From the NCBI GenBank assembly GCA_051439505.1, contig JBFRWI010000039.1:1-19223 (forward strand): a DNA stretch of 19,223 nucleotides, read 5' to 3'. Origin of the DNA: Hormoscilla sp. GTDB lineage: Bacteria; Cyanobacteriota; Cyanobacteriia; Cyanobacteriales; Desertifilaceae. Under the pieces are notes generated by a model. The model was not told the origin of the DNA, ran no database searches, and saw nothing but the letters and a program-made list of their open reading frames with translations. The first letter of the stretch is position 1; every line of letters starts with the position of its first letter. Shown here piece by piece: positions 1-19,223 of the stretch. A program made the position numbers and the translations under genes.

Positions 1-53
1 CCCTTTCAACAGGTACTACCAAAATCAAACATTCAACAGATACTTCATGAAGA

Positions 54-223
54 GGCGTTGCACATTTTTGGGATGATAGCAGCCAATTGTTAAAATTTGG
101 CTTAGGCTAAAGGCGAATTGGAAAAGAGTAAAGCTATCTATTCATGACTACAAATGACTATCTAAATTAACCATTGACAATTAGCAATTAGCAGCCGGAA
201 TGCAAACGTCGTTGTGCAACGCC
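54..223. mobile_element. MITE-A, 170 bp non-autonomous element
   Basis: 11-bp terminal inverted repeats ggcgttgcaca (54-64) / tgtgcaacgcc (213-223) and a perfect 8-bp TSD catgaaga (46-53, 224-231). GGC termini with an 8-bp TSD suggest IS1/IS1595-type ends (inference). Contains short heptamer-like repeats (atgacta x2, attagca x2). Confidence 0.85.
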
Positions 224-281
224 CATGAAGAAAATGTCCGCTATCGCCAGCGAGTGTTTTCACCGCTCGTTACCTTCTGGA

Positions 282-404
282 GGATCTCCTGGGTTTATAG
301 TGTAAAATGTATACTACAATACAGTTTACACCCATAAAAAAGGCTGAAACCCTTAATTTTGCGTGGCTATAAGATTTACTTATCACCCAAAACCCAGGAG
401 ACCC
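282..404 (-). mobile_element. MITE-B copy 1, 123 bp
   Basis: TIRs ggatctcctgggttt / aaacccaggagaccc and a perfect 8-bp TSD cttctgga (274-281, 405-412). Its reverse complement aligns end to end with 1862-1983. GG termini with an 8-bp TSD suggest ISL3- or IS256-superfamily origin (inference). Confidence 0.9.
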
Positions 405-471
405 CTTCTGGATGTTTTTGATGCAGGTAATCGACTCAGATAAAAGTCTTCACAATGCGGTTAGTTGAGAT

Positions 472-1821
472 CTAATCTTTATTTTTTTTAGATAATAGCG
501 CTTTAATTCCCATACTTATCCTGACATTGATTAAGACATAAAGAAACCATACCAACTTTCCTTCAAACAGGCTACTGACCGTAATATTCGGGATAATCAT
601 CCAGGTCAAAATTATGAGCGGAAGTAATGATTCAGCAGCGCCACTACTAATCATATAACGAACGCTCATAGAAATTGTTATCAAGAAAGATGAAATAAAT
701 ATAATCAATCCCATGAGACCGAATTCTAAAAAAATCTCTAAAAAACCATTGTGAGCATGGGGTGGAACCCAGCCATTATCAGAAACAATACCATGAGCTG
801 GGTTATCTTCACCCCGCGATTCTTGCCAAAAACTGTGGGTGCCATGGCCAAAAAGTGGGCGTTCTAGCCCCCGTTCTATCATCTGTGGCCAAACTTTGGT
901 TCGTCCAGTTAATGTCGGATCTTTACCGAGAGATTCTAAAAGTTCGTTCCAATTTTCCAGAAGAATAAATGTTATCGAAGTACCCACCAGCATACAAACC
1001 AAGACACCAACGAAAGCCTGCCTGTAAGGCAATTTTTTCAAAATCTGCAGGCAGGCCACTAATACTAGCAAAATAATAATAACGATCAAACTTGTTGCTG
1101 AGTTAGTATTTTGTCTCACATAAAGTGAAAACAGTGCTATTCCAATTGCTAGTAAACGTTGTTTGGGGTAGAACATAGCATGAAATAACCACAAGGTTAT
1201 ATTTAATGATAATAATATCCCAAGTCTATTCGGGTGAGGCAAAACGCCTTGCCAGCCAATTTTGACAGTATTGATTGCAAAGGATGGTTTAGTTAATGCA
1301 TAAAATGCGCTCAAAAAGGATAATACCGTGGTACTCCATCGCAAAATACTGACGAGTTTTTGCCAACTATATCGCTGGGCAATATGAGCAGCAAAAATCG
1401 AAACTTGCAAAATCACTAGATTATGTTTCAGGGCGTAAATTGGGGTATCTGACCAAAGCGTAGACAAAAGGGAGAGTAAAAGAAAAAAGCCTAACAACAG
1501 GTTATTAAACAAAAGTAGGGAATTTTTGAATATCTGAAGGAACCAGTATCTTAATATTATGACAGAAACAGAATAATAACCCAAGTTCATTATAGCCTGG
1601 ATAGGTCCGAGATTTTTATTCAGTAATTGAACTGGTTGCAACTGAGATAGCGGATATAGTGTAATTTCTGATACTGCCATAAAAAAAATTATAGTAAATA
1701 GATAAATCATCTTATCCGCAAAATAACGGATATTGCTAATTTTAAAAATTAACATACTATAGATTACCAAACAACACATTATCGGTAATAGTATAACAGG
1801 TTCTAAGATTAATTCTTTCAT
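472..1821 (-). CDS. Wzy/O-antigen ligase family membrane protein (ExoQ-like polysaccharide polymerase)
   Basis: 449 aa with many TM segments. Motifs GWQGVLPHPNRLG, KDPTLTGRTKVW and HAHNGFLEIFLEFGLMG are typical of the Wzy_C/O-antigen ligase family. Adjacent to wza/wzc. Confidence 0.85.
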   Translation of the reverse strand: MKELILEPVILLPIMCCLVIYSMLIFKISNIRYFADKMIYLFTIIFFMAVSEITLYPLSQLQPVQLLNKNLGPIQAIMNLGYYSVSVIILRYWFLQIFKNSLLLFNNLLLGFFLLLSLLSTLWSDTPIYALKHNLVILQVSIFAAHIAQRYSWQKLVSILRWSTTVLSFLSAFYALTKPSFAINTVKIGWQGVLPHPNRLGILLSLNITLWLFHAMFYPKQRLLAIGIALFSLYVRQNTNSATSLIVIIILLVLVACLQILKKLPYRQAFVGVLVCMLVGTSITFILLENWNELLESLGKDPTLTGRTKVWPQMIERGLERPLFGHGTHSFWQESRGEDNPAHGIVSDNGWVPPHAHNGFLEIFLEFGLMGLIIFISSFLITISMSVRYMISSGAAESLLPLIILTWMIIPNITVSSLFEGKLVWFLYVLINVRISMGIKALLSKKNKD

Positions 1822-1861
1822 TTTTAAGCGAATGATAATGTCAACATGAATTATGTTGATA

Positions 1862-1983
1862 GGGTCTCCTGGGTTTTGGGTGATAAGTAAATCTTATAGC
1901 CACGCCAAATAAAGGTTTCAGCCTTTTTTTGGGCGATCGAATGTATTGTGGTATACATTTGACACTATAAACCCAGGAGAGCC
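1862..1983 (+). mobile_element. MITE-B copy 2, 122 bp, in the divergent wzy/wza intergenic region
   Basis: TIRs gggtctcctgggttt / aaacccaggagagcc and a perfect 8-bp TSD tgttgata (1854-1861, 1984-1991). Inverted relative to 282-404. Confidence 0.9.
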
Positions 1984-2061
1984 TGTTGATATTAATGAGG
2001 ATAACTATGGCGGTCAAAAAACTATGCTAGCATATTAAACAGTAAGTCGATCGCAAAAATT

Positions 2062-3579
2062 ATGTCACGTAGCTTCCCTGTCTGTCTGAAGAAAATAAGA
2101 ACGGCTACGATGCTCATCCTCTGTACTTTACTGGCGATGAAAAGCACATTGCCTACCCAGGCACAACCGCTCATTATGGCCCCGGAGCCAGCAGTACCGG
2201 ATGTCACGTCCGGGGAACAGCCAGCACCAGGAGAACCGAAACTTAGCCCCCAATCACAGTCCTACAGATTAGGAGTAGGCGATCGCATCCACATTGACAT
2301 CTTTGACTCCCCTGAATATAGTGGAGAATACTCAATTGGCCCAGAAGGGGTTTTGCGCTTACCCCTAGTTCCACCCATATCGGCACTGCATCTAACAATA
2401 GAACAGTTGTCGGATGAAATTACAAAGCAATATAATTCTATATTAAAACGCCCTTTTGTCAGAGTGACGATCATCAGGCCTCGTTCACTGACCATAGGTG
2501 TCACCGGTGAAGTGGATATTCCTGGAGTTTACGCAATAGCGCCAGAAATTGGCAGAACAACTAGACTCCGATACCCAACTGTAACGGAGGTGATTTCCTC
2601 AGCAGGAGGAATCACCCTAGCGGCAGATATACGTCGTGTTCAGGTACGCCGACAGTCAGGTAAAAATCAAGAACAAGTCATTATTCTAGATCTTTGGAGA
2701 TTCTTGCAGCAGGGTACTGGTAGCATTCCAGATATTAATCTTCGAGATGGAGACATAGTTTTTGTACCTACTATAACCACCATTAACCTGGAAGAAGTAC
2801 CCCTGTTGGCAACTTCTAGTTTTGCGATCCCAGCAGCAAAACCCCGTAATATTACAGTAGTCGGGGAAGTAAACAAACCAGGATCCTATGTCACCATCGG
2901 AGGACCTACACGCTCATCGAACACACCAGGCGGACTACCCACTGTGACCTGGGCAATTAGGACAGCTGGGGGAATTACACAATTAGCTGATATTCGTAGC
3001 ATCCAGATCCAGCGGTCTACAAAGACGGGAACAGAGCAAATGATTGAGATTGACCTCTGGCAATTCTTGCAGACGGGCGATCTTACCCAAGACACGGTGG
3101 TGCAAGATGGAGATCGGATTATTGTTCCCACTGCTACTGAAATTAACCTGGCACAAGCCGTTCAGTTAGGAAGGGCTAGCTTTTCCCCTGACAGTATTAT
3201 AGTTTATGTCATCGGCGAAAGGCCACCAGGATCTGTTAGGGAAATAAGAGTCCCCCCTAATACCCCCTTGAATGAAGCTCTGCTGGCGGCTGGTGGATTC
3301 ATTGACAGGAGAGTCAGTCAGAGTTCTGTTGGTCTAATTCGCCTCAAGGATGATGGCACCACGTCTTTTCGTCAAATCCCTATCGAACTGGCAGCTGGAG
3401 TTAATCAGGAAACCAATCCGCTGCTGACCAATAATGACGTTATCATAGTTAGCCGCTCGGGTCTAGCCCGGCTTCTGGATATAAGTGATGCGGTAGGACG
3501 TGTATTAAACCCTGTTAACTCTCTGCGCTCGCTCGTCGGCATTTTTGATATCCTAGGAATTATCAACAACCAGGAATAG
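2062..3579 (+). CDS. wza: Polysaccharide export protein, Wza/OPX family with SLBB repeats
   Basis: Poly_export motif YRLGVGDRIHIDIFDSPEYSGEY and repeated SLBB units (VTGEV..PG, AGGIT..ADIR, L.DGD.VFVP). Directly upstream of wzc. Exact start uncertain (ATG 2062 or 2110). Confidence 0.88.
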   Translation: MSRSFPVCLKKIRTATMLILCTLLAMKSTLPTQAQPLIMAPEPAVPDVTSGEQPAPGEPKLSPQSQSYRLGVGDRIHIDIFDSPEYSGEYSIGPEGVLRLPLVPPISALHLTIEQLSDEITKQYNSILKRPFVRVTIIRPRSLTIGVTGEVDIPGVYAIAPEIGRTTRLRYPTVTEVISSAGGITLAADIRRVQVRRQSGKNQEQVIILDLWRFLQQGTGSIPDINLRDGDIVFVPTITTINLEEVPLLATSSFAIPAAKPRNITVVGEVNKPGSYVTIGGPTRSSNTPGGLPTVTWAIRTAGGITQLADIRSIQIQRSTKTGTEQMIEIDLWQFLQTGDLTQDTVVQDGDRIIVPTATEINLAQAVQLGRASFSPDSIIVYVIGERPPGSVREIRVPPNTPLNEALLAAGGFIDRRVSQSSVGLIRLKDDGTTSFRQIPIELAAGVNQETNPLLTNNDVIIVSRSGLARLLDISDAVGRVLNPVNSLRSLVGIFDILGIINNQE

Positions 3580-3604
3580 TGATTAGGACGTAACAGCTGT
3601 ACTC

Positions 3605-5869
3605 ATGAATAGCAAGCATGATTTTAACTCTGTTCCCAGGTTGAATGGGGATGGCCATAAGTTTCAAGATAATTACCAGCCTGAGTCGAACAACAGTAGC
3701 GATGAACAAAGTTTGGATCTGGGCTGGGTGTTTGGGGTTTTTCTTCGCCGGTTCCCAATAATGGTGGTTGTGGCATTGGCGGTCACCGCGATTGGCGGTA
3801 TTTCCATTGTTAAGCAATCCCGTAAGATTGTGCCAGTATATCAAGGTTCATTTCGGCTTTTAGTTGAGCCAGTCACTGCTGAATCCCGAGTTGCTCGGTT
3901 ATCCTTGCTCTCTCAAAGCTCAGAGGAAGTTGTCAAACAGGGTCATTTTAACATCAGCTTGGTGGATTACGAGAGTCTGATTAGAGTATTAAAGAGTCCT
4001 CATCTGATGGCTCCAATAATAACGCAGATAAACGAGCGTTATCCAAACATGAGTTATAACTCATTAATCAGTAAATTAAAAGTGATTCGCGTGAGTTATG
4101 AAAAAGATGCTAAAACTGAAGGGACTTCAATTCTAAGGGTTGGTTATGAAAGTTCCGAACCCGCAAAAATTCAGTTTGTTTTGGATACTATAGCCAAAGA
4201 GTATATTGAACACAGTATCCGAGAGCGCCGTGCTAGCATCAAGCAAGGGATTGAGTTTATTGAATCTCAACTCCCTGAAAAGGAACGGCGAGTTGAAGAT
4301 CTGCGAAGCAGGATTCAAAAGTTGCGGGAAGAATACAACCTGATAGATTCTAATTATCAAAGTCTCCACATGTCGATCGCCCATCGTCAGCTCCAGGATA
4401 AGCTAACCGATCTGGAAGCAGATCTCCGTGAAAATCAAATTATCTACCAGACTCTGCAACAACAGTTCAAACGAGGCAATTTTGTGTTAATCTTGAATAG
4501 CGCTCCCAACGCCTATAGTACCTTACTCAAGAATTATCAGGAAATAGAAACCCAGATTTCTGTCGCCTCTGCCCGCTTGCGTGAAGATAGTCTCCCGATG
4601 CAGTCTTTACGTGAAAAGCAGCAAAATATGCGGACCCAATTGCGTCAAGAAGCATTTGGTGTTGTCTCAAAGGTTGGCGACCAAATTAAAGCTCTAGAGT
4701 CTCGCCAACAAATACTGAACGCGGCGGAAAATCGTCTCAATCAACAAATTCAACAATGGCCTTATGTGACCCGCCAATATGATGATTTACAACGGGAATT
4801 AGAATTTGCTACTGATAGATACAAGGAGTTTTTAGCAAAGCTTGAATCCTTGCGCATAGATGATGCTCAAATCCAAGTACCTTGGCAGATAATAGATCCA
4901 CCCTCTGTCAAGAGAGATGCTGGCGGCAAACCCATATCTAGTGCGGTCAATAAAAGTCGCAAACAGCTAGTTTTATTGGTGGTTGTAAGCACGCTATTGA
5001 GTGTCGGGGTTGGTTTTTTCGTCGAAATTATGATCGCAGTCTTCCACTCACCTGAAGAGGTTAAAGCGGCAACAAAACTGCAACTGCTCGGAGCGATTCC
5101 TTTTGCCAAGCAATTCCAGAAAATTGAGAAAAAACGCAAAAGACTTTCTCGCAAGACTCTCAAACTAGAAGATTTACCTCAGCCTGAGTTGAGTGCCTCC
5201 TTTTTAGAGGCTTTCCGCTCTCTGTACACCAATATTCGTTTGCTCGGTTCTAAGAACAAACCAATCCGTTCTTTGGCGATCGGTTCTCCTGGTCCTAGAG
5301 ATGGCAAATCGACAATTGCGGTCCAGCTTGCCCAGACAGCAGCTGCAATAGGTCAGCGGGTGTTGCTGGTGGATGCTGATTTGCGTCATCCTCGGCTGCA
5401 TCGCCAGCTGGGTGTCCCTAATTTGCGGGGACTTAGCGATGCAGTGAAGAGTGATTCAAGTTTGAATGAACTCATCCAGCAATCGACCTTGGACAAAAAC
5501 CTGTTTTTCTTGAGTGCAGGGCAAGTTACGCCTGACCCCATTAAGCTGCTCTCATCGCCAAAAATGCAATATCTGATGGAGCAATTTCAAAGTTTTTTCG
5601 ACTTGGTCATCTATAATACGCCTCCTCTCGTAGGTTTGGCAGATGGTAACTTGATCGCTGCTCTTGCTGATGGGATTATCTTGGTAGTGCGAATAGACAA
5701 GACAGACCGTTCCTTGGTGAACAAAGCCTTAGAGGAATTAAAAATTTCTCGTGCTGTAATTTTAGGTGTTGTTGTCAATGGAGTTAAGGGAGCCGTTTCT
5801 AACTCCATTGCTGCCTATCAACGCAACCCTTACAAGTCGCCAGAGCTTGACAGCGAAACAGTTCTTTAG
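3605..5869 (+). CDS. wzc: Polysaccharide co-polymerase / BY-kinase, Wzc (GumC) family
   Basis: Two TM segments flank a coiled-coil periplasmic region. The C-terminal domain has EAFRSLYTNI, Walker A GPRDGKST, A' VDADLRHP and a variant Walker B LVIYNTPP. Confidence 0.9.
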   Translation: MNSKHDFNSVPRLNGDGHKFQDNYQPESNNSSDEQSLDLGWVFGVFLRRFPIMVVVALAVTAIGGISIVKQSRKIVPVYQGSFRLLVEPVTAESRVARLSLLSQSSEEVVKQGHFNISLVDYESLIRVLKSPHLMAPIITQINERYPNMSYNSLISKLKVIRVSYEKDAKTEGTSILRVGYESSEPAKIQFVLDTIAKEYIEHSIRERRASIKQGIEFIESQLPEKERRVEDLRSRIQKLREEYNLIDSNYQSLHMSIAHRQLQDKLTDLEADLRENQIIYQTLQQQFKRGNFVLILNSAPNAYSTLLKNYQEIETQISVASARLREDSLPMQSLREKQQNMRTQLRQEAFGVVSKVGDQIKALESRQQILNAAENRLNQQIQQWPYVTRQYDDLQRELEFATDRYKEFLAKLESLRIDDAQIQVPWQIIDPPSVKRDAGGKPISSAVNKSRKQLVLLVVVSTLLSVGVGFFVEIMIAVFHSPEEVKAATKLQLLGAIPFAKQFQKIEKKRKRLSRKTLKLEDLPQPELSASFLEAFRSLYTNIRLLGSKNKPIRSLAIGSPGPRDGKSTIAVQLAQTAAAIGQRVLLVDADLRHPRLHRQLGVPNLRGLSDAVKSDSSLNELIQQSTLDKNLFFLSAGQVTPDPIKLLSSPKMQYLMEQFQSFFDLVIYNTPPLVGLADGNLIAALADGIILVVRIDKTDRSLVNKALEELKISRAVILGVVVNGVKGAVSNSIAAYQRNPYKSPELDSETVL

Positions 5870-6006
5870 AGAACATGTTATATTGTCCTCTTAAAAAATG
5901 CCGATCGAGAGAGGGGTGTAATGTCATATCACTACATGTTTATTACCACCTGGAATATGACGATATCTCTGGAAACTCTTGCAAGCAAGCGATTTCAGTC
6001 CAGACT

Positions 6007-7218
6007 TCATCTTTCCCTGACATCTGTCACTCGCCAACTGAGTTTTAAGTTGAACCAGAAATTCCAGACAGTCACAGCTGCGATCGCAATTCCTACCGCC
6101 AGATATTCATTCACTCTGAAAACGTTAAACAACAAATTTACAAGCAAAACATTCAAAAATAGTCCGGAAAGACAAATAATATTAAATTTAAGCAGCCGTT
6201 TGTAGCGTCTGCGCCACCCCTGTTGCCCGCGAGAAATATCCCTAAAAGTCCATAAGTCATTCCAGAGGAAATTATTAACAATTGCCGCTTCCCCAGCAAT
6301 GACTGCACTGCTAGTTAGCCCCAACCCTACCTGTTCCCGCAGTAGGTACAGCACTGCCATATTCACAAATACGCCGCTAAAACCGACAATCCCAAACCGG
6401 ATAAATCTACCAATTGGCCATAGAGAAAGGCGCAACCTTAACAAGTGTTGGAGATATTCTACATACTGTTTCCAGGTGACCTTACTATTCCCGACTTGAC
6501 GCTCTTGAAAAACATAGCCAACCTCAGAATGAGAGCGGATATTTCCCCGTGCGAGTACCTCAATCAAAATCTTGTAACCCAAGGGATTCAGATTGTGACC
6601 CACAAGACAACTGCGGCGCACTAAAAAATAGCCACTCATAGGGTCATGTACACGACCAATCACCTCTGGGAGCAGAATTAGCCCCAGCATTTGAGCCCCA
6701 CGGGAGCAAAACCGCCGCAGAAAACTCCATTCACTCACCCCCCCTCCTTCTACATGACGACTGCCAACTGCTAAATCTGCACCTCTTTCCATCTCCTGCC
6801 AAAGCTGCAATAAGGTAGAGGGTGGATGTTGTAAGTCAGCATCAATAACACCTAATACTTCTGCTTGGGCCACCTGCCAACCGCGAATTATTGCAGTTGA
6901 GAGTCCTCGTTCCCCAACTCTACGCATTACCCGCAGTTGGGGATAGTTGAGCGTTAATTCTTGAGCGATTTTCCAGGTGCGATCGGGGCTATCATCATCT
7001 ACTACAATCAATTCATATTCTTCTGGGATTACTCCATCTAGCAATACACTCAAAAGCTTGACAATTTCACAGATGTTTTGACTTTCGTTATAAGTAGGAA
7101 TCACTAGGGAAAACTTCGGTACTGGGCTGCCGGCAGATGACAGTCGCTGTGGAAGCTCAGGAATTCTTAAACAACCAGATGGAACTGGTAATAAGGAATC
7201 TGCTTGACCAAAACTCAT
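6007..7218 (-). CDS. GT2 polyprenol-phosphate glycosyltransferase (DPM1/GtrB-like) fused to a GtrA-like membrane domain
   Basis: SLVIPTYNE, VVDDDSPDRT, DADLQHPP and DPMSGYF motifs, then a 4-TM GtrA-like C-terminus (RFGIVGFSGVFVN...NNFLWNDLWTF...WNFWFN). Confidence 0.88.
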   Translation of the reverse strand: MSFGQADSLLPVPSGCLRIPELPQRLSSAGSPVPKFSLVIPTYNESQNICEIVKLLSVLLDGVIPEEYELIVVDDDSPDRTWKIAQELTLNYPQLRVMRRVGERGLSTAIIRGWQVAQAEVLGVIDADLQHPPSTLLQLWQEMERGADLAVGSRHVEGGGVSEWSFLRRFCSRGAQMLGLILLPEVIGRVHDPMSGYFLVRRSCLVGHNLNPLGYKILIEVLARGNIRSHSEVGYVFQERQVGNSKVTWKQYVEYLQHLLRLRLSLWPIGRFIRFGIVGFSGVFVNMAVLYLLREQVGLGLTSSAVIAGEAAIVNNFLWNDLWTFRDISRGQQGWRRRYKRLLKFNIICLSGLFLNVLLVNLLFNVFRVNEYLAVGIAIAAVTVWNFWFNLKLSWRVTDVRER

Positions 7219-7279
7219 TTCCTACTTTTTTGTTATGCTAAAGTTCTCTCTGAGGAAATTGACTTCAAGTCTTTAGTAG

Positions 7280-7424
7280 CAGGGTCAGCGCAATAAGCAA
7301 TAAAGCCTAGGCATTCTCAATTATTGCTAATTACTGCCATAACATTGAGCAATATAGCTTGGCTATTGCGATTTATCGTTGCTCAATACCAAATTTTAGC
7401 AAAAATTTTCTTGCGCTTGCCTTG
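7280..7424. mobile_element. MITE-C, 145 bp
   Basis: Imperfect 17-bp TIRs: cagggtcagcgcaataa vs reverse complement of right end caaggcaagcgcaagaa (13/17). 11-bp TSD with one mismatch: gtctttagtag (7269-7279) / gtcttaagtag (7425-7435). A CAGGG terminus with a ~10-bp TSD suggests ISAs1-type origin (inference). Internal IR attgagcaa/ttgctcaat. Confidence 0.75.
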
Positions 7425-7631
7425 GTCTTAAGTAGCGAGGCCAAATTTATTTTATATGAGATAATTGATATACAAGCGCTTGAGTGGGAAACTCTCTGAG
7501 AGTTACACCCTCCACCTCTGTAGCCATATTTTTAATATTATCTTCCCCCATCAGGCGATCGCCCTATCATGTATATTGCTTATCTAGGTACATATTTTAT
7601 AGGAAAAATATAACAATGCCATCATATCTTA

Positions 7632-7720
7632 TACCATTTTTTTAAGGTCTGATAGACTTAAAGCGCCATAACCCTTGATTTTGCGTTATTTATCTCTTCC
7701 ACCACTTTAATAAATTGGTA
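7632..7720. mobile_element. MITE-D-like 89-bp element
   Basis: Imperfect TIRs taccatttttttaag / ctttaataaattggta, flanked by tta on both sides (7629-7631, 7721-7723). The short TSD makes this call weaker. Confidence 0.5.
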
Positions 7721-8085
7721 TTACCCATAGCCCCCATATGTATGGTGGGCAGTGCCCACAGATCGCTATATCTAGCCTCTGACTTGACAATTGGCGTCAT
7801 TCATAGCCATATTTAGTCAGGTAATGGGGCTATTTGATTTTCAAATCTGCGGGTAATTTATGGTTAAACAAGCAAACCTATTTATAATTATTAACTATAA
7901 ATATCACCTTTGCACAATTATGTGATGATAGGGGTTGTTGATGAGCGATTGTTTATAGTCATTAATGTCTTTATATGGATATATTTATGATATAGCCCTA
8001 CGCGCATTCGTATAAGCAATTATAAATTCGCAAAAATTACCAATTTATAGCTATTAATGCAATGACAGCTTAAGGCTTATTTTTG

Positions 8086-9672
8086 TCACTGTTTTGTTAA
8101 TTTCCACAACCATACCTGATCCCTACTATCCTTGTTGAGCTTGTCAACGGGCTCTATCTTAACATGCTGCTGTTTTTCCAGTTCAAAACGTAATACCGTG
8201 GCTGGTCCATATAAAAATATATCACTAAAACCCTCGGAAATCTTAGATACAGTTGGTTTAAAAAATAGCTGAAACTGGACTTGGGGCTCCAGCAGATAGC
8301 TCAAAGATATTACATTTCCCAGGCTAGCATCAGAAAGGTCACTCACCACAAGCTGGTCCTTTCCTTGGTTAACGATCTCAGCTACTTGGGGATTTTCAGA
8401 GAACCATTCCTTACTCCACCAAGTCTGGGCCTGGGAACTGATAGCGCTAGCTACCACTCCACTTGACACCACCAGGATTGTAATTATTTTCCACAGCTGC
8501 TGTTCCCTGTCTTTAATAGAGCTAGAGATAATTTTACTGGTCAATAGGTAAGCAACAGCTATCTGAATCCCTAAATAGCAGGGGAATAAATACCTACCTT
8601 TAGTTGAACGTATTCCTCCCCAGATTAAATCTGGCAGGATTACTGCTAGGGCTGTCACCCCAATTAACGTTAAAATAAATAACCAGACCCGTTGGGGACT
8701 GTGACCGCAGAGAAAATAAATCCCATATCCTACTAAAATTAACAGCATTAAAGCAGCAGATGTAAAAGGAATTAAATATATAGATGGGGAATCAGAGGTG
8801 ATACCAAAATCAAAAAACACGCGACTGAGATTCCCCACCCAATTTTTTACCAAAGATAATCTGTCTAATTCTCCTTGAGACCAGTTAGTTCTCCCAGCTG
8901 CTTTGGTAAAGTTAGCGATCAGAATTAGAATCCAAGGAGCAAATACCAGCAGTGCCGCAATTGAGGCTAGCAGGTAACTGGCTATTGTCTTAGTCCACCG
9001 GCACCCTTGCTTGACCACTACATAGATGCCATGTCCAATGGCAACCAATCCACAAAATAGATGAGTATATAGCCCCAGTGCCACCGTGGCTGAGTAAATG
9101 CCCCAACTGAACTTAGTCTGTATGCGTATTGATCTTAGCAGTGAGGCGCAGGATAGCAAGACCATCACTGGATATAAACTATAGGGTCGTGCTTCTTGAG
9201 CGTAGAGGATGTGGAAGGGTGAGACTGCTAGCAGTCCCATTGCCATCCATGCCACTTCTGGTTCTGCAAATAATTCTTGGCACAGCCAATATAGGCAAGG
9301 GAACGCCAGCAGACCGATCGCAGCAGACAAACTTCTGATTGCTGCTACGGAATGACCCAGCCCCTGCACCCAAAATCTCGCCAGTACAAAATAAAGGGGT
9401 GGCAGTTGAGGTTCTTCTACTGCCAACCCCTTTATAGTATCAATAACTCCTTTTTCCTGATTGGGGTGCTGGTACTTCTGTAAGTCTGGGATGCCAATCA
9501 CCTGACCGTCAGAGACTTGCTGAACTGCTTCAGTCTCTGTATAGCCAGATACCCGTAATGAAGTAAAGACTTCGTCATACCAATAGAATTTGCCGTCAAG
9601 GTTCAGAAAGCGAAACCATACACCCAGCACCAGCAAGACTCCGATTAAAAACCTCAATCTGCTTTTTATCAT
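8086..9672 (-). CDS. GT-C fold membrane glycosyltransferase (GT39/PMT_2, ArnT-like)
   Basis: N-terminal TM followed by FYWYDEVFT (acidic loop), EEPQLPPLYF, RSLSA and SPFHILYAQEARPYSL; multiple TM segments; 528 aa. Confidence 0.85.
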   Translation of the reverse strand: MIKSRLRFLIGVLLVLGVWFRFLNLDGKFYWYDEVFTSLRVSGYTETEAVQQVSDGQVIGIPDLQKYQHPNQEKGVIDTIKGLAVEEPQLPPLYFVLARFWVQGLGHSVAAIRSLSAAIGLLAFPCLYWLCQELFAEPEVAWMAMGLLAVSPFHILYAQEARPYSLYPVMVLLSCASLLRSIRIQTKFSWGIYSATVALGLYTHLFCGLVAIGHGIYVVVKQGCRWTKTIASYLLASIAALLVFAPWILILIANFTKAAGRTNWSQGELDRLSLVKNWVGNLSRVFFDFGITSDSPSIYLIPFTSAALMLLILVGYGIYFLCGHSPQRVWLFILTLIGVTALAVILPDLIWGGIRSTKGRYLFPCYLGIQIAVAYLLTSKIISSSIKDREQQLWKIITILVVSSGVVASAISSQAQTWWSKEWFSENPQVAEIVNQGKDQLVVSDLSDASLGNVISLSYLLEPQVQFQLFFKPTVSKISEGFSDIFLYGPATVLRFELEKQQHVKIEPVDKLNKDSRDQVWLWKLTKQ

Positions 9673-9742
9673 AGCTAGCTATAACGCTCAGCATACTAAA
9701 AAACTGGTAATTTCCGGAAAATACCTTCCTCTAGGCGGTTGA

Positions 9743-9770
9743 CGCGGTTCGGATCCGCTCACCGACCGCG
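9743..9770. repeat. REP-like GC-rich hairpin
   Basis: cgcggttcgg...ccgaccgcg imperfect inverted repeat, similar to dispersed cyanobacterial palindromes. Confidence 0.45.
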
Positions 9771-9774
9771 ACGC

Positions 9775-9797
9775 AAAAAAGCCACCAGCAGCGTGGC
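9775..9797 (-). terminator. Putative intrinsic terminator after the omegaRNA-like element
   Basis: Minus strand reads gccac-gctgctg-gtggc followed by tttttt. Confidence 0.55.
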
Positions 9798-9824
9798 CAG
9801 TGACTATTTTGCTGCCTTTCGGCT

Positions 9825-9990
9825 CTCCCTAAAAAGGGGTAAAGTTTGCCTCGGTCATGTTAAAGGGGCTTTTTACATCTGACTCACACGGTCCTACAAA
9901 AATCCATTCGTTCCGTTCCTTAAAGCCAGACGACAGAGCTCACCCGTAGGTGTCATGACCCCCCTAACGTAGGTCTAATCCTGGACCTGC
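9825..9990 (-). ncRNA. Orphan IscB-type omegaRNA / HEARO-like scaffold, internally deleted
   Basis: Minus strand carries, in order, ccag...CTACGTTAGGGGGGTCATGACACCTACGGGTG, AGCTCTGTCGTCTGGCTTTAA, GTGTGAGTCAGA, AAGCCCCTTTAACATGACCGAGGCAAACTTTACCCC...GGGAG. This is the motif order I recall for RNAs upstream of cyanobacterial IscB (RRXRR-HNH) genes. Pairings visible in the sequence: 9959-9968 with 9859-9868, and 9923-9930 with 9878-9885. Confidence 0.72.
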
Positions 9991-10118
9991 ATCTTGCATC
10001 TTCCCGAGGGAGATAATTCCGGATATTGCCAGAAATTACCGGATTTTATGCAAGAGTCTATCAGATCTCTAAAACTGTGGAGACCCCACAGCGATCGGTA
10101 ATGCGCGTGCCTCTTGGT

Positions 10119-10238
10119 CTAGGACCGAATAATCTTATCCTTTTGGCTGACGAATATCAGGAACACCGTTGCGGGAATGACCACAATCACGCCCCCCAAT
10201 ACAAGGCTCCAAAAAAAATTTGCCAACGAAGGAGTCAT
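10119..10238 (-). CDS. psbX: Photosystem II protein X (absent from the ORF track)
   Basis: Translates to [39 protein letters not shown] (39 aa) with a GAGGA RBS just upstream. Divergent from yggT. Confidence 0.95.
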
Positions 10239-12193: not shown

Positions 12194-12275
12194 GCGGATG
12201 TGGCGGAATTGGTATACGCGCACGTTTGAGGGGCGTGTGGCGCAAGCCTTGCGAGTTCGAGTCTCGCCATCCGCA
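12194..12275 (+). tRNA. trnL: tRNA-Leu(GAG)
   Basis: Acceptor stem gcggatg/catccgc, anticodon arm cacgt-ttGAGgg-gcgtg, long variable arm, T arm gcgag-ttcgagt-ctcgc, discriminator A. CCA is not encoded. Confidence 0.96.
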
Positions 12276-17293: not shown

Positions 17294-17501
17294 TGATTAA
17301 ATGGTAGGATACAACTGAAGTAGTGTTGAAAATATTATCAGGCGGTGAGATGGTTAGCTGCTGCGCAGCCGCTGCGCTTTCCGGGGGGTTAACTCAATTG
17401 AGGATAATCGCGGTTTCCCCCCCAAGCTGCGGGAAAAATCGCTCCGGACAACCTATATCAAAAACCTTGAAGTCTTGGTAGGGGTCGATCTAGTTAAAGC
17501 C

Positions 17502-17771
17502 ATGTCAAAAGAAATCAGGTTTAGTAACCATGCTCTGTCAAAACTTGACGTGGTAAATGAACAAGGGTTTGATATTGGGTGGGAGTTGGTAATTGAAACT
17601 ATTCAATCTCCCGATAGACAAGAACAGAAAGAGGGAGAGGAAACTGTAGCACAGAAAAGGCTTAATGAGAATATAGTGCTCAGGGTTGTTTATAGAGAAT
17701 TTGAAGCATTTATTCTAGTAATTACACTATATCCAGGCAGAAGGAGTCGTTATGAAAAGACAAAGAGTTAG
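17502..17771 (+). CDS. DUF4258-like protein, predicted RelE-fold toxin
   Basis: IRFSNHALSKL...VIETIQSPD...AQKRLNENIVLRVVY...VITLYP pattern; 89 aa from ATG 17502. Overlaps the downstream DUF2283-like gene. Confidence 0.72.
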   Translation: MSKEIRFSNHALSKLDVVNEQGFDIGWELVIETIQSPDRQEQKEGEETVAQKRLNENIVLRVVYREFEAFILVITLYPGRRSRYEKTKS

Positions 17772-18246
17772 ATACAGCCAGGATGTTGATGTGCTGATGA
17801 TTGAGTTATCGGATGAAGGGATCGCCTATGCTGAGGATGAAGGACGGGTAATTCTTCATTATTCCGATCGGGAACGGTTAGTGCTGATTGAGATTTTAGA
17901 TTTTCAGCAGTTGATGGAAGATCGCAAAACTGATAAGCTGATTCTACCAGTTGATGCGCAAGTGAAAACTGCATTCGGAGTTTCTATAGGAAATAGGCAT
18001 CTGCTGAAGTTGCGACAGGCGATCGCAACTTCAAACGACCTCAGCGAAGAAGACAAGGCCGAAGCGCTAGAGCAGGTGCAAACTTTGGCCGAAGCTGCGA
18101 AGAACCCCTCTCAGGAAAGGAAGAGGATTAAGAGGGCGATCGCGATGCTCAGGGGAATTGCTGCTCCCTTGCCACAGGCAACTAAGCTAGTAGAAGAGTT
18201 TAATAAACTTTTACCGGAAATTCCCAAGGTTTTGGGTGTGGAATAG
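17752..18246 (+). CDS. DUF2283-like predicted antitoxin fused to a C-terminal helical domain
   Basis: N-terminal VRYSQDVDVLMIELSD...VILHYS...LVLIEILD is DUF2283-like. The last ~80 aa (LRQAIATSNDLSEEDKAEALEQVQTLAEAAKNP...KLLPEIPKVLG) form a separate amphipathic helical module. Confidence 0.72.
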   Translation: MKRQRVRYSQDVDVLMIELSDEGIAYAEDEGRVILHYSDRERLVLIEILDFQQLMEDRKTDKLILPVDAQVKTAFGVSIGNRHLLKLRQAIATSNDLSEEDKAEALEQVQTLAEAAKNPSQERKRIKRAIAMLRGIAAPLPQATKLVEEFNKLLPEIPKVLGVE

Positions 18247-19099: not shown

Positions 19100-19223
19100 A
19101 CCCTAAAGGGTCCGGCTACATGAACAAAGCCCGCCTGCGCGGGCTAAATTATTATATTATCAATGTACCCGTAGCGTTAGTCGCCCGATTTTTCCGGAAC
19201 GGTACCCTAAAGGGTCCGGCTAC
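19100..19223. repeat. REP-like dispersed repeat, two copies (second cut by the window end)
   Basis: accctaaagggtccggctac occurs at 19100-19119 and 19204-19223. The first copy is followed by the hairpin agcccgc-ctgc-gcgggct (19128-19145). Confidence 0.75.

Follow-up and report, generated by a model that had tools for sequence, protein, structure and literature searches.

A gene-less IscB-type omegaRNA element with IS607-like ends beside psbX in Hormoscilla sp.

A 2026 review places IscB under IS605 only (PMC13565253), and according to a preprint the IS607 serine resolvase was found associated with tnpB and not with iscB (bioRxiv 2023.03.14.532601). The same preprint describes gene-less derivatives of IscB and TnpB elements, and states that IscB guides begin beyond the boundary of the element and depend on read-through from the host. 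IS607 elements are described as having a shared 2-bp core and helically phased motifs (PMC6188088), and one of them can be excised with no more than 40 and 60 bp of its ends (bioRxiv 2023.11.20.567912).

A search of the literature by titles and abstracts did not find IscB with IS607 ends; the TAM tables and supplements of the Science 2021 IscB paper may bear on novelty and on the CTG prediction made below. Stand-alone, trans-acting omegaRNAs were reportedly described in that paper. An initial annotation of the DNA analysed here, a 19,223-nt stretch of a Hormoscilla sp. genome (the window), had placed such a stand-alone IscB-type omegaRNA, without an iscB gene, at 9775..9990 of the minus strand. 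Judging from the sequence, we give a probability of roughly 0.78 to the reading that this IscB family is of IS607 type, is moved in trans by a serine TnpA, and has CTG as its predicted TAM.

The mini-element at the psbX locus and its copies

The omegaRNA indeed has no iscB and ends in a terminator-like hairpin. Rather than being a gene on its own, it forms the core of a multicopy mobile element of 368 bp that runs from 10056 to 9689 on the minus strand (9689..10056; the count takes in the CT at its start and the CTG at its end, the inserted length being 365 bp). When the region was queried against the genome, 43 matches started at 10056 and a longer query stopped at 9689, so that these positions are the termini shared by the genome copies. 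The element lacks a protein gene, and its ends are common to a nuclease-coding (iscB) relative. We hold with very high confidence that the feature is a single copy of a gene-less element derived by internal deletion from an IscB transposon of 1.55 kb, hereafter a mini. It lies co-oriented with and downstream of the host gene psbX (10119..10238, minus strand; Pfam PF06596, 79.5 bits), whose stop codon is 62 nt before the element; on its other side, a PMT-type glycosyltransferase gene (8086..9672, minus strand; PF13231, 41.2 bits, and the open reading frame list) starts 16 nt after it.

The initial annotation had also pointed to a genome search for iscB and sister copies, and both were found. 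The assembly, which is 93% complete in 232 contigs, holds 23 left and 18 right ends. Sixteen right ends belong to minis and two to iscB-coding versions with the same ends; the left ends comprise 11 of minis, one of an iscB-coding version and 11 that could not be classed, mostly through contig ends. Eight minis are complete on a single contig (357-449 bp). The iscB-coding versions lie on C2, complete at 1551 bp, and on C41, cut by a contig end; both encode a full-length, intact-looking IscB of 421 aa that passes NF040563 (478 and 489 bits). In this assembly there are thus about eight minis for each iscB parent. Other genomes contain minis whose interiors differ (L133, with L163 and L165 of similar appearance), and therefore iscB was lost, with the scaffold kept, more than once. 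The window copy is not simple debris, as the initial annotation had surmised: neither of its ends is damaged, and the spread of the family is recent.

Several features of the copies may be recorded beside these counts. Short palindromic repeats are inserted in omegaRNA loops or spacer in G000 (C1, C5, C232, C203, C43, C33, C113) and in L069, and many contigs break near window position 9940. Footprints of 18-45 nt that retain only the left end occur at L070, L071/L152, L072/L073, L074 and G000:C77:40463; one is common to two genomes, and that of L074 abuts an IS607 right end.

The insertion beside psbX is recent and unconserved. The site is empty in all four same-genus genomes, which read psbX, then CTG, then normal intergenic sequence, and contigs from four RNA sequencing runs (4/4 without the element) diverge from the window sequence at 10055. 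In all four relatives psbX is followed by a gene that lies here on C166, behind another mini, and between the two lie at least 21 kb of genes judged from their appearance to be of polysaccharide type (window 1-9688 and G000:C166:1-11475), with a same-orientation mini at each edge of this region. The right flank of the window copy agrees with the relatives' site for 2 nt only, and run X3 has CAG at the same place upstream of the glycosyltransferase gene. The window copy may thus join two different target sites. Under a composite-transposon reading, with the polysaccharide genes flanked by two minis, the site of the relatives is not restored at the outer junction. Elsewhere, the window holds a tRNA gene (12194-12275) and two small overlapping genes (17475-18246) that resemble a toxin-antitoxin-type pair by appearance only.

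The omegaRNA scaffold

The identification as an IscB-type omegaRNA was borne out by covariance search. The Rfam HEARO model (RF02033) matches the minus strand from 10017 to 9839 (9839..10017) over model positions 1-211, the whole model, with 58 bits and an E-value of 2.9e-11. This is below the gathering score of 83 bits, and a whole-window Rfam search at the gathering threshold returned no HEARO; the match was recovered by the E-value search. Among the 14 HEARO matches of the genome, the best reaches 84.9 bits and is the one that passes the gathering cut-off. The scaffold of the C2 and C41 elements, located upstream of the cognate iscB, is 88-93% identical to that of the window.

The sequence blocks, the two long-range stems, the tetraloop hairpin and the hairpin with six T described in the initial annotation were all found on the minus strand where it had placed them, except that the G run has six G rather than five. 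The stem of 9959-9968 with 9859-9868 has 10 pairs, two of them G-U, and that of 9923-9930 with 9878-9885 has 8 pairs; both are present in the predicted fold. The annotated interval omits the 5' 66 nt of the scaffold, whose first (guide-adaptor) stem begins at 10055 (9992..10055, minus strand). It encloses two hairpins, the fold pairing element positions 2-9 with 58-65, and overlaps the transposon end; this first stem is built from the IS607-like end, in contrast to related elements with a GTCA-type start. The fold z-score is −1.82 for the 216 nt of 9775..9990 and −2.58 for 10056-9775.

Downstream of the scaffold, GCC-GAAA-GGC (9814..9823, minus strand) takes the position of the iscB start-codon hairpin of the C2 and C41 elements, with ATG changed to AGG, a homology assigned by eye. 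It is followed by a hairpin resembling an intrinsic terminator (9775..9805, minus strand), of which 10 pairs span 9805-9780 before six T; terminator-like sites number 3 in 801 bases against 0.6 ± 0.7 in shuffles. This module is common to the mini family, recurs in other minis at unrelated sites, and is absent from the iscB elements. The spacer that comes next (9723..9774, minus strand) differs in length among copies and contains a short palindromic repeat. It has been considered a possible iscB coding remnant, for which the case is weak since only 8-nt matches to iscB occur in it.

Compared with HEARO and the OgeuIscB omegaRNA (PMC9640706), the window copy is alike in its full-length model match, in a guide drawn from the 5' flank, and in the order of guide-adaptor stem, nexus-type stems, pseudoknot partner and terminal hairpins, and differs in its score of 58 bits (<83) and in having no nexus pseudoknot loop. 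An alignment places a 13-nt deletion between two AGC repeats at 9938..9941 (minus strand), which took the pseudoknot loop strand and half of its hairpin. It is confined to the window copy, one of 11 minis, while the other 10 retain the pseudoknot strand. The 13 nt that were lost formed the loop whose partner is the 3' GGC (9848..9850, minus strand; assigned to this clade by eye), so that the GGC has no mate here. Loop and partner are complementary, with differing sequences (co-variation), in 8/8 loci parsed; the script was tried on 29 loci and the rest were read by eye. In the OgeuIscB omegaRNA, replacing the matching loop abolished editing/activity (PMC9640706). Because of the loss of this loop, the window copy is probably dead as a guide, and it is probably still movable. 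A lone CRISPR-DR28 match of Rfam (19123-19146, 36.6 bits) resembles the palindromic repeats of the family and probably represents no CRISPR.

Ends, target site and likeness to IS607

The element starts with CT and ends with CTG, and inserts at CTG without a longer duplication, leaving CT at both ends. The first CT (10055..10056, minus strand) is found in 41/41 distinct left ends, collected with a search pattern that tolerated 2 mismatches, and is repeated in the far-end CTG (9689..9691, minus strand), which is the target motif and the predicted IscB TAM and was seen in 28/28 right ends. The orientation to the non-palindromic CTG is fixed in all 28, and the base after it is random. The surroundings are otherwise near random (<=0.32 bits per position), as measured on 41 left and 28 right flanks drawn from several genomes. 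In filled sites the base after the leading CT is C in 38 of 41, T in two and A in one, and never G.

Further empty sites read flank|CTG|flank as well: that of the C43 copy in 4/4 genomes and that of the C180 copy in one. An esterase-like frame apparently split between G000 C193 and C41, with an iscB element between the parts, is continuous only with CTG. For the C113, C203, C153 and C2 copies, the empty-site search gave no ortholog reaching the junction, and six full elements from relatives yielded one usable empty site, reading TTG.

Both ends of the mini carry motifs phased by 10 bp, at positions 15, 25 and 35 on one end and 16 and 26 on the other. The omegaRNA-side end (10010..10056, minus strand), when read on the plus strand, is homologous to an IS607 right end, and the other end (9692..9735, plus strand; C(C/T)GG at 9704 and 9714) is the equivalent of the IS607 left end. 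An earlier comparison of 26-nt ends with nine resolvase loci had shown nothing clear, and the link emerged through a flank match. This flank comparison led to two 1.8-kb elements, on C213 and C1, which encode an IS607-type TnpA (MerR-HTH/resolvase) and TnpB. The omegaRNA end, read on the opposite strand, matches IS607 right ends at 32, 32 and 31 of 47 positions, without gaps and in the terminal register. In an ungapped scan of the 47-nt end over every position of both genome strands, the best 23 hits are the family itself, the next three are the IS607 right ends, and the best other match is 30/47. C(C/T)GG stands at positions 15, 25 and 35 in both the mini end and the IS607 right end. For the other end, agreement with the IS607 left end is 20-22 of 47, no better than background, with a common run of 13 nt offset by one.

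The layout of these IS607 elements is the same, with a 3-nt target, (C/G)TG, of which the second and third bases are found again at the right end; empty sites for four of their copies read GTG in three cases and ATG in one. On the IS607-matching strand the core is AG in the mini family and TG in the neighbouring tnpA-coding IS607 elements. Neither is GG, and since the IS607 elements themselves have TG, GG is not universal in this group. Measured against described members of the family (IS607, IS1535, CboIStron; PMC6188088, bioRxiv 2023.11.20.567912), the mini is alike in having a core dinucleotide at both ends and in the target. It further resembles the family in its near-random flanks, its phased subterminal motifs, and its sequence similarity to the right end of an IS607 from the same genome. 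It differs in its cargo, which is IscB/omegaRNA in opposite orientation rather than TnpB, in its core (AG, or TG in a sister clade, not GG), and in that no tnpA was found in cis. Hence the mini would work like IS607 as a non-autonomous dependant. The IS200/IS605 frame given in the initial annotation does not fit these ends, and mobilisation of the family by a serine recombinase appears likely from sequence comparison.

No serine TnpA or TnpB was found in cis in the minis or in the 1551-bp iscB elements. Both cognate tnpA copies in the assembly are broken, by an in-frame stop on C213 and by a frameshift and a stop on C1; intact ones occur in G002, where the protein has 195 aa, and in G256. In G003, G269, G235 and G127 the left end of the element is present, and no full close relative of that IS607 was found. 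A search by end patterns for an autonomous element with iscB and a transposase found none in this genome or five related genomes. Over 401 genomes of the order, such an element was not found either, 24 matching the pattern, many by chance at 2 mismatches. Metagenome contigs gave four end matches (three with iscB or cut, one mini) and no element with iscB and transposase.

Some IS607 loci deserve a separate remark. Two intact IS607-type tnpA genes without tnpB (L077, L079) stand beside phycobiliprotein-like genes and are possibly domesticated. In the IS607 family represented by L176:1510-3208, L076 and L080, the tnpB frame (563 aa) overlaps nearly all of tnpA in a different frame. Insertions at L178 and L235 that resemble group II intron ends interrupt an IS607 left end and an IscB omegaRNA.

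The closest IscB proteins share 79-100% identity and come from sources named Hormoscilla, Moorena and Limnospira; the next ones stand at 64%, with a gap between. In a quick tree of 79 IscB proteins, with end labels assigned by eye, this close group forms one branch (SH-aLRT 99) that is sister to a larger group (joint support 100), and GTCA-type elements fall outside both. Nineteen loci of the sister clade were read in five genomes of another genus (g72), and one with an insertion in its left end was excluded; 13 have CT/CTG and 5 have CA/CAG, so that core and target are concordant in 18/18. CA/CAG, read on the other strand, is a TG core, as in the IS607 elements, and where the core changes, so does the base that pairs with it in the first RNA stem. 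This concordance may reflect a single inherited change, that is, one strong event and not 18. A more distant IscB group in the g72 genomes (~56% identity) has mostly GTCA-type palindromic ends. Further IscB loci without GTCA-type ends are L094, L099 and L100; L099 shows phased repeats by eye, yet falls among the GTCA-type proteins on a long branch, and a second switch of ends is possible there.

Alternative readings, proposed mechanism and significance

The mini could be an ordinary PATE-like derivative of IS200/IS605 whose 3-nt target is unusual; a Y1 (HUH) TnpA would recognise its subterminal hairpins and mobilise it in single-stranded form. Mobilisation by Y1, and the lack of TIR and TSD, are described for ISC elements (PMC4810608), target and terminal motifs of Y1 elements also resemble each other (bioRxiv 2023.03.14.532601), and the genome has one IS200-type TnpA (NF033573, 88.9 bits). 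Both mini ends can be drawn as imperfect hairpins, of which the 5' arm of the far one varies among copies and the near one is also an RNA stem. The PATE-like derivatives of ISGst1/ISGst5 in Geobacillus stearothermophilus (bioRxiv 2023.03.14.532601) and ISC (PMC4810608) are likewise non-autonomous, with ends kept and the nuclease gene lost, depend on helper proteins in trans, and make no long target duplication. They are IS200/IS605 elements with Y1 TnpA and 4-5-nt targets, whereas the mini family has CTG, a shared 2-bp core and 10-bp-phased motifs. CTG is shorter than such targets and outside the listed ISC sites GT|GG, GT|RA and N|ATGA (PMC4810608). The four Y1-family loci of the genome have no end sequence in common with it (9 mismatches in 26 at best), those related IscB elements that start with a GTCA-type sequence and have one palindrome common to both ends are clearly different in appearance, and the best non-family match to the mini end is an IS607 end, all of which leaves this reading improbable. 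We regard as somewhat less probable still that another enzyme leaving a 2-bp CT repeat is responsible, either a DDE transposase acting on imperfect 23-bp inverted repeats or an IS110-type recombinase. The ends are symmetric, with GGTAATT 14 nt from the core on both sides, and the CT found at either end could be taken for a 2-bp duplication; the fixed orientation to CTG speaks against it, as does the lack of any other genome element with these ends. IS110 has a long, RNA-specified target, which near-random flanks do not fit.

The initial annotation had favoured a trans-acting guide or a domesticated small RNA, and a host function of this kind at the psbX locus now appears very unlikely. Co-orientation with psbX, the closing hairpin, an IscB available in the genome, and contigs from two RNA libraries that cover family sequence agree with it. 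In run X2 the contig depth of the scaffold is 54-325 against 4.8 for psbX, a figure summed over a multicopy family in another strain, unstranded and possibly including DNA, which we do not count as evidence of expression. None of the 16 RNA runs contains half of the window's words, and the insertion is in no run. Domestication is contradicted by the conservation check, with the site empty in the four relatives and the four RNA runs, and by a terminator that minis at unrelated sites have in common. As for a guide acting against other DNA, the window copy is the one among 11 minis that is without the pseudoknot, and none of 22 flank-derived guides has a second target in the genome with <3 mismatches in 16 next to CTG, control motifs giving the same. 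The missing second target fits self-homing or no function equally.

For the preferred reading of an IS607-type element moved in trans, we propose the following course. TnpA_S from an IS607 tnpA/tnpB element would bind the 10-bp-phased motifs at both ends and, acting across the 2-bp core (AG on the IS607-matching strand, CT on the omegaRNA strand), release the element in the form of a double-stranded circle, and the circle would re-insert at CTG. Host transcription entering the element, here read-through from psbX that could supply the 5' guide, would produce an RNA of flank-derived guide and scaffold that ends near 9775. The would-be guide of the window copy (10057..10076, minus strand) corresponds to the empty site of the element itself and to no further close target in the genome. 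IscB supplied by the two full elements could take up the RNA of intact copies and cleave the empty site, in which the flank is followed by CTG, and repair would restore the element; the filled site, with CTC rather than CTG after the flank, would be spared. The upstream open reading frames show no co-orientation bias (11 versus 10; control 189 versus 211), as counted with a crude caller that ignored genes <100 aa, and so give no support for selection on guide expression.

Gene-less omegaRNA elements are already known, which makes another one modest in itself; the ends matter more. What the locus adds is an IscB-type mini that has no gene, carries IS607 ends and is about eightfold more numerous than its parent, together with empty sites and a switch of core; the end homology, empty sites and matched cores make it a concrete, testable case with named parts. 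A broader scenario, which we put forward tentatively as holding somewhat less than even odds, is that in a cyanobacterial IscB lineage hairpin ends of the Y1 kind were replaced by IS607 ends, that the TAM was adjusted to the 3-nt target of the recombinase, CTG (CAG in one sub-clade), and that the new end came to form the first omegaRNA stem. The gene-less minis would then be double parasites that depend on an IS607-TnpB element for TnpA_S, in order to move, and on a sister element for IscB, in order to home back, and the acquired terminator would yield a discrete, loadable guide RNA and may have helped them outnumber the parent. If the IS607 reading is right, compact (421-aa) IscB nucleases with 3-nt TAMs are predicted, shorter than most reported ones (NTAAA, NWRRNA; NAC is also short). 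One short stretch of DNA would serve as recombinase site, RNA stem and mark of self and non-self, and the ancestor of Cas9 would have switched transposase families, as TnpB did.
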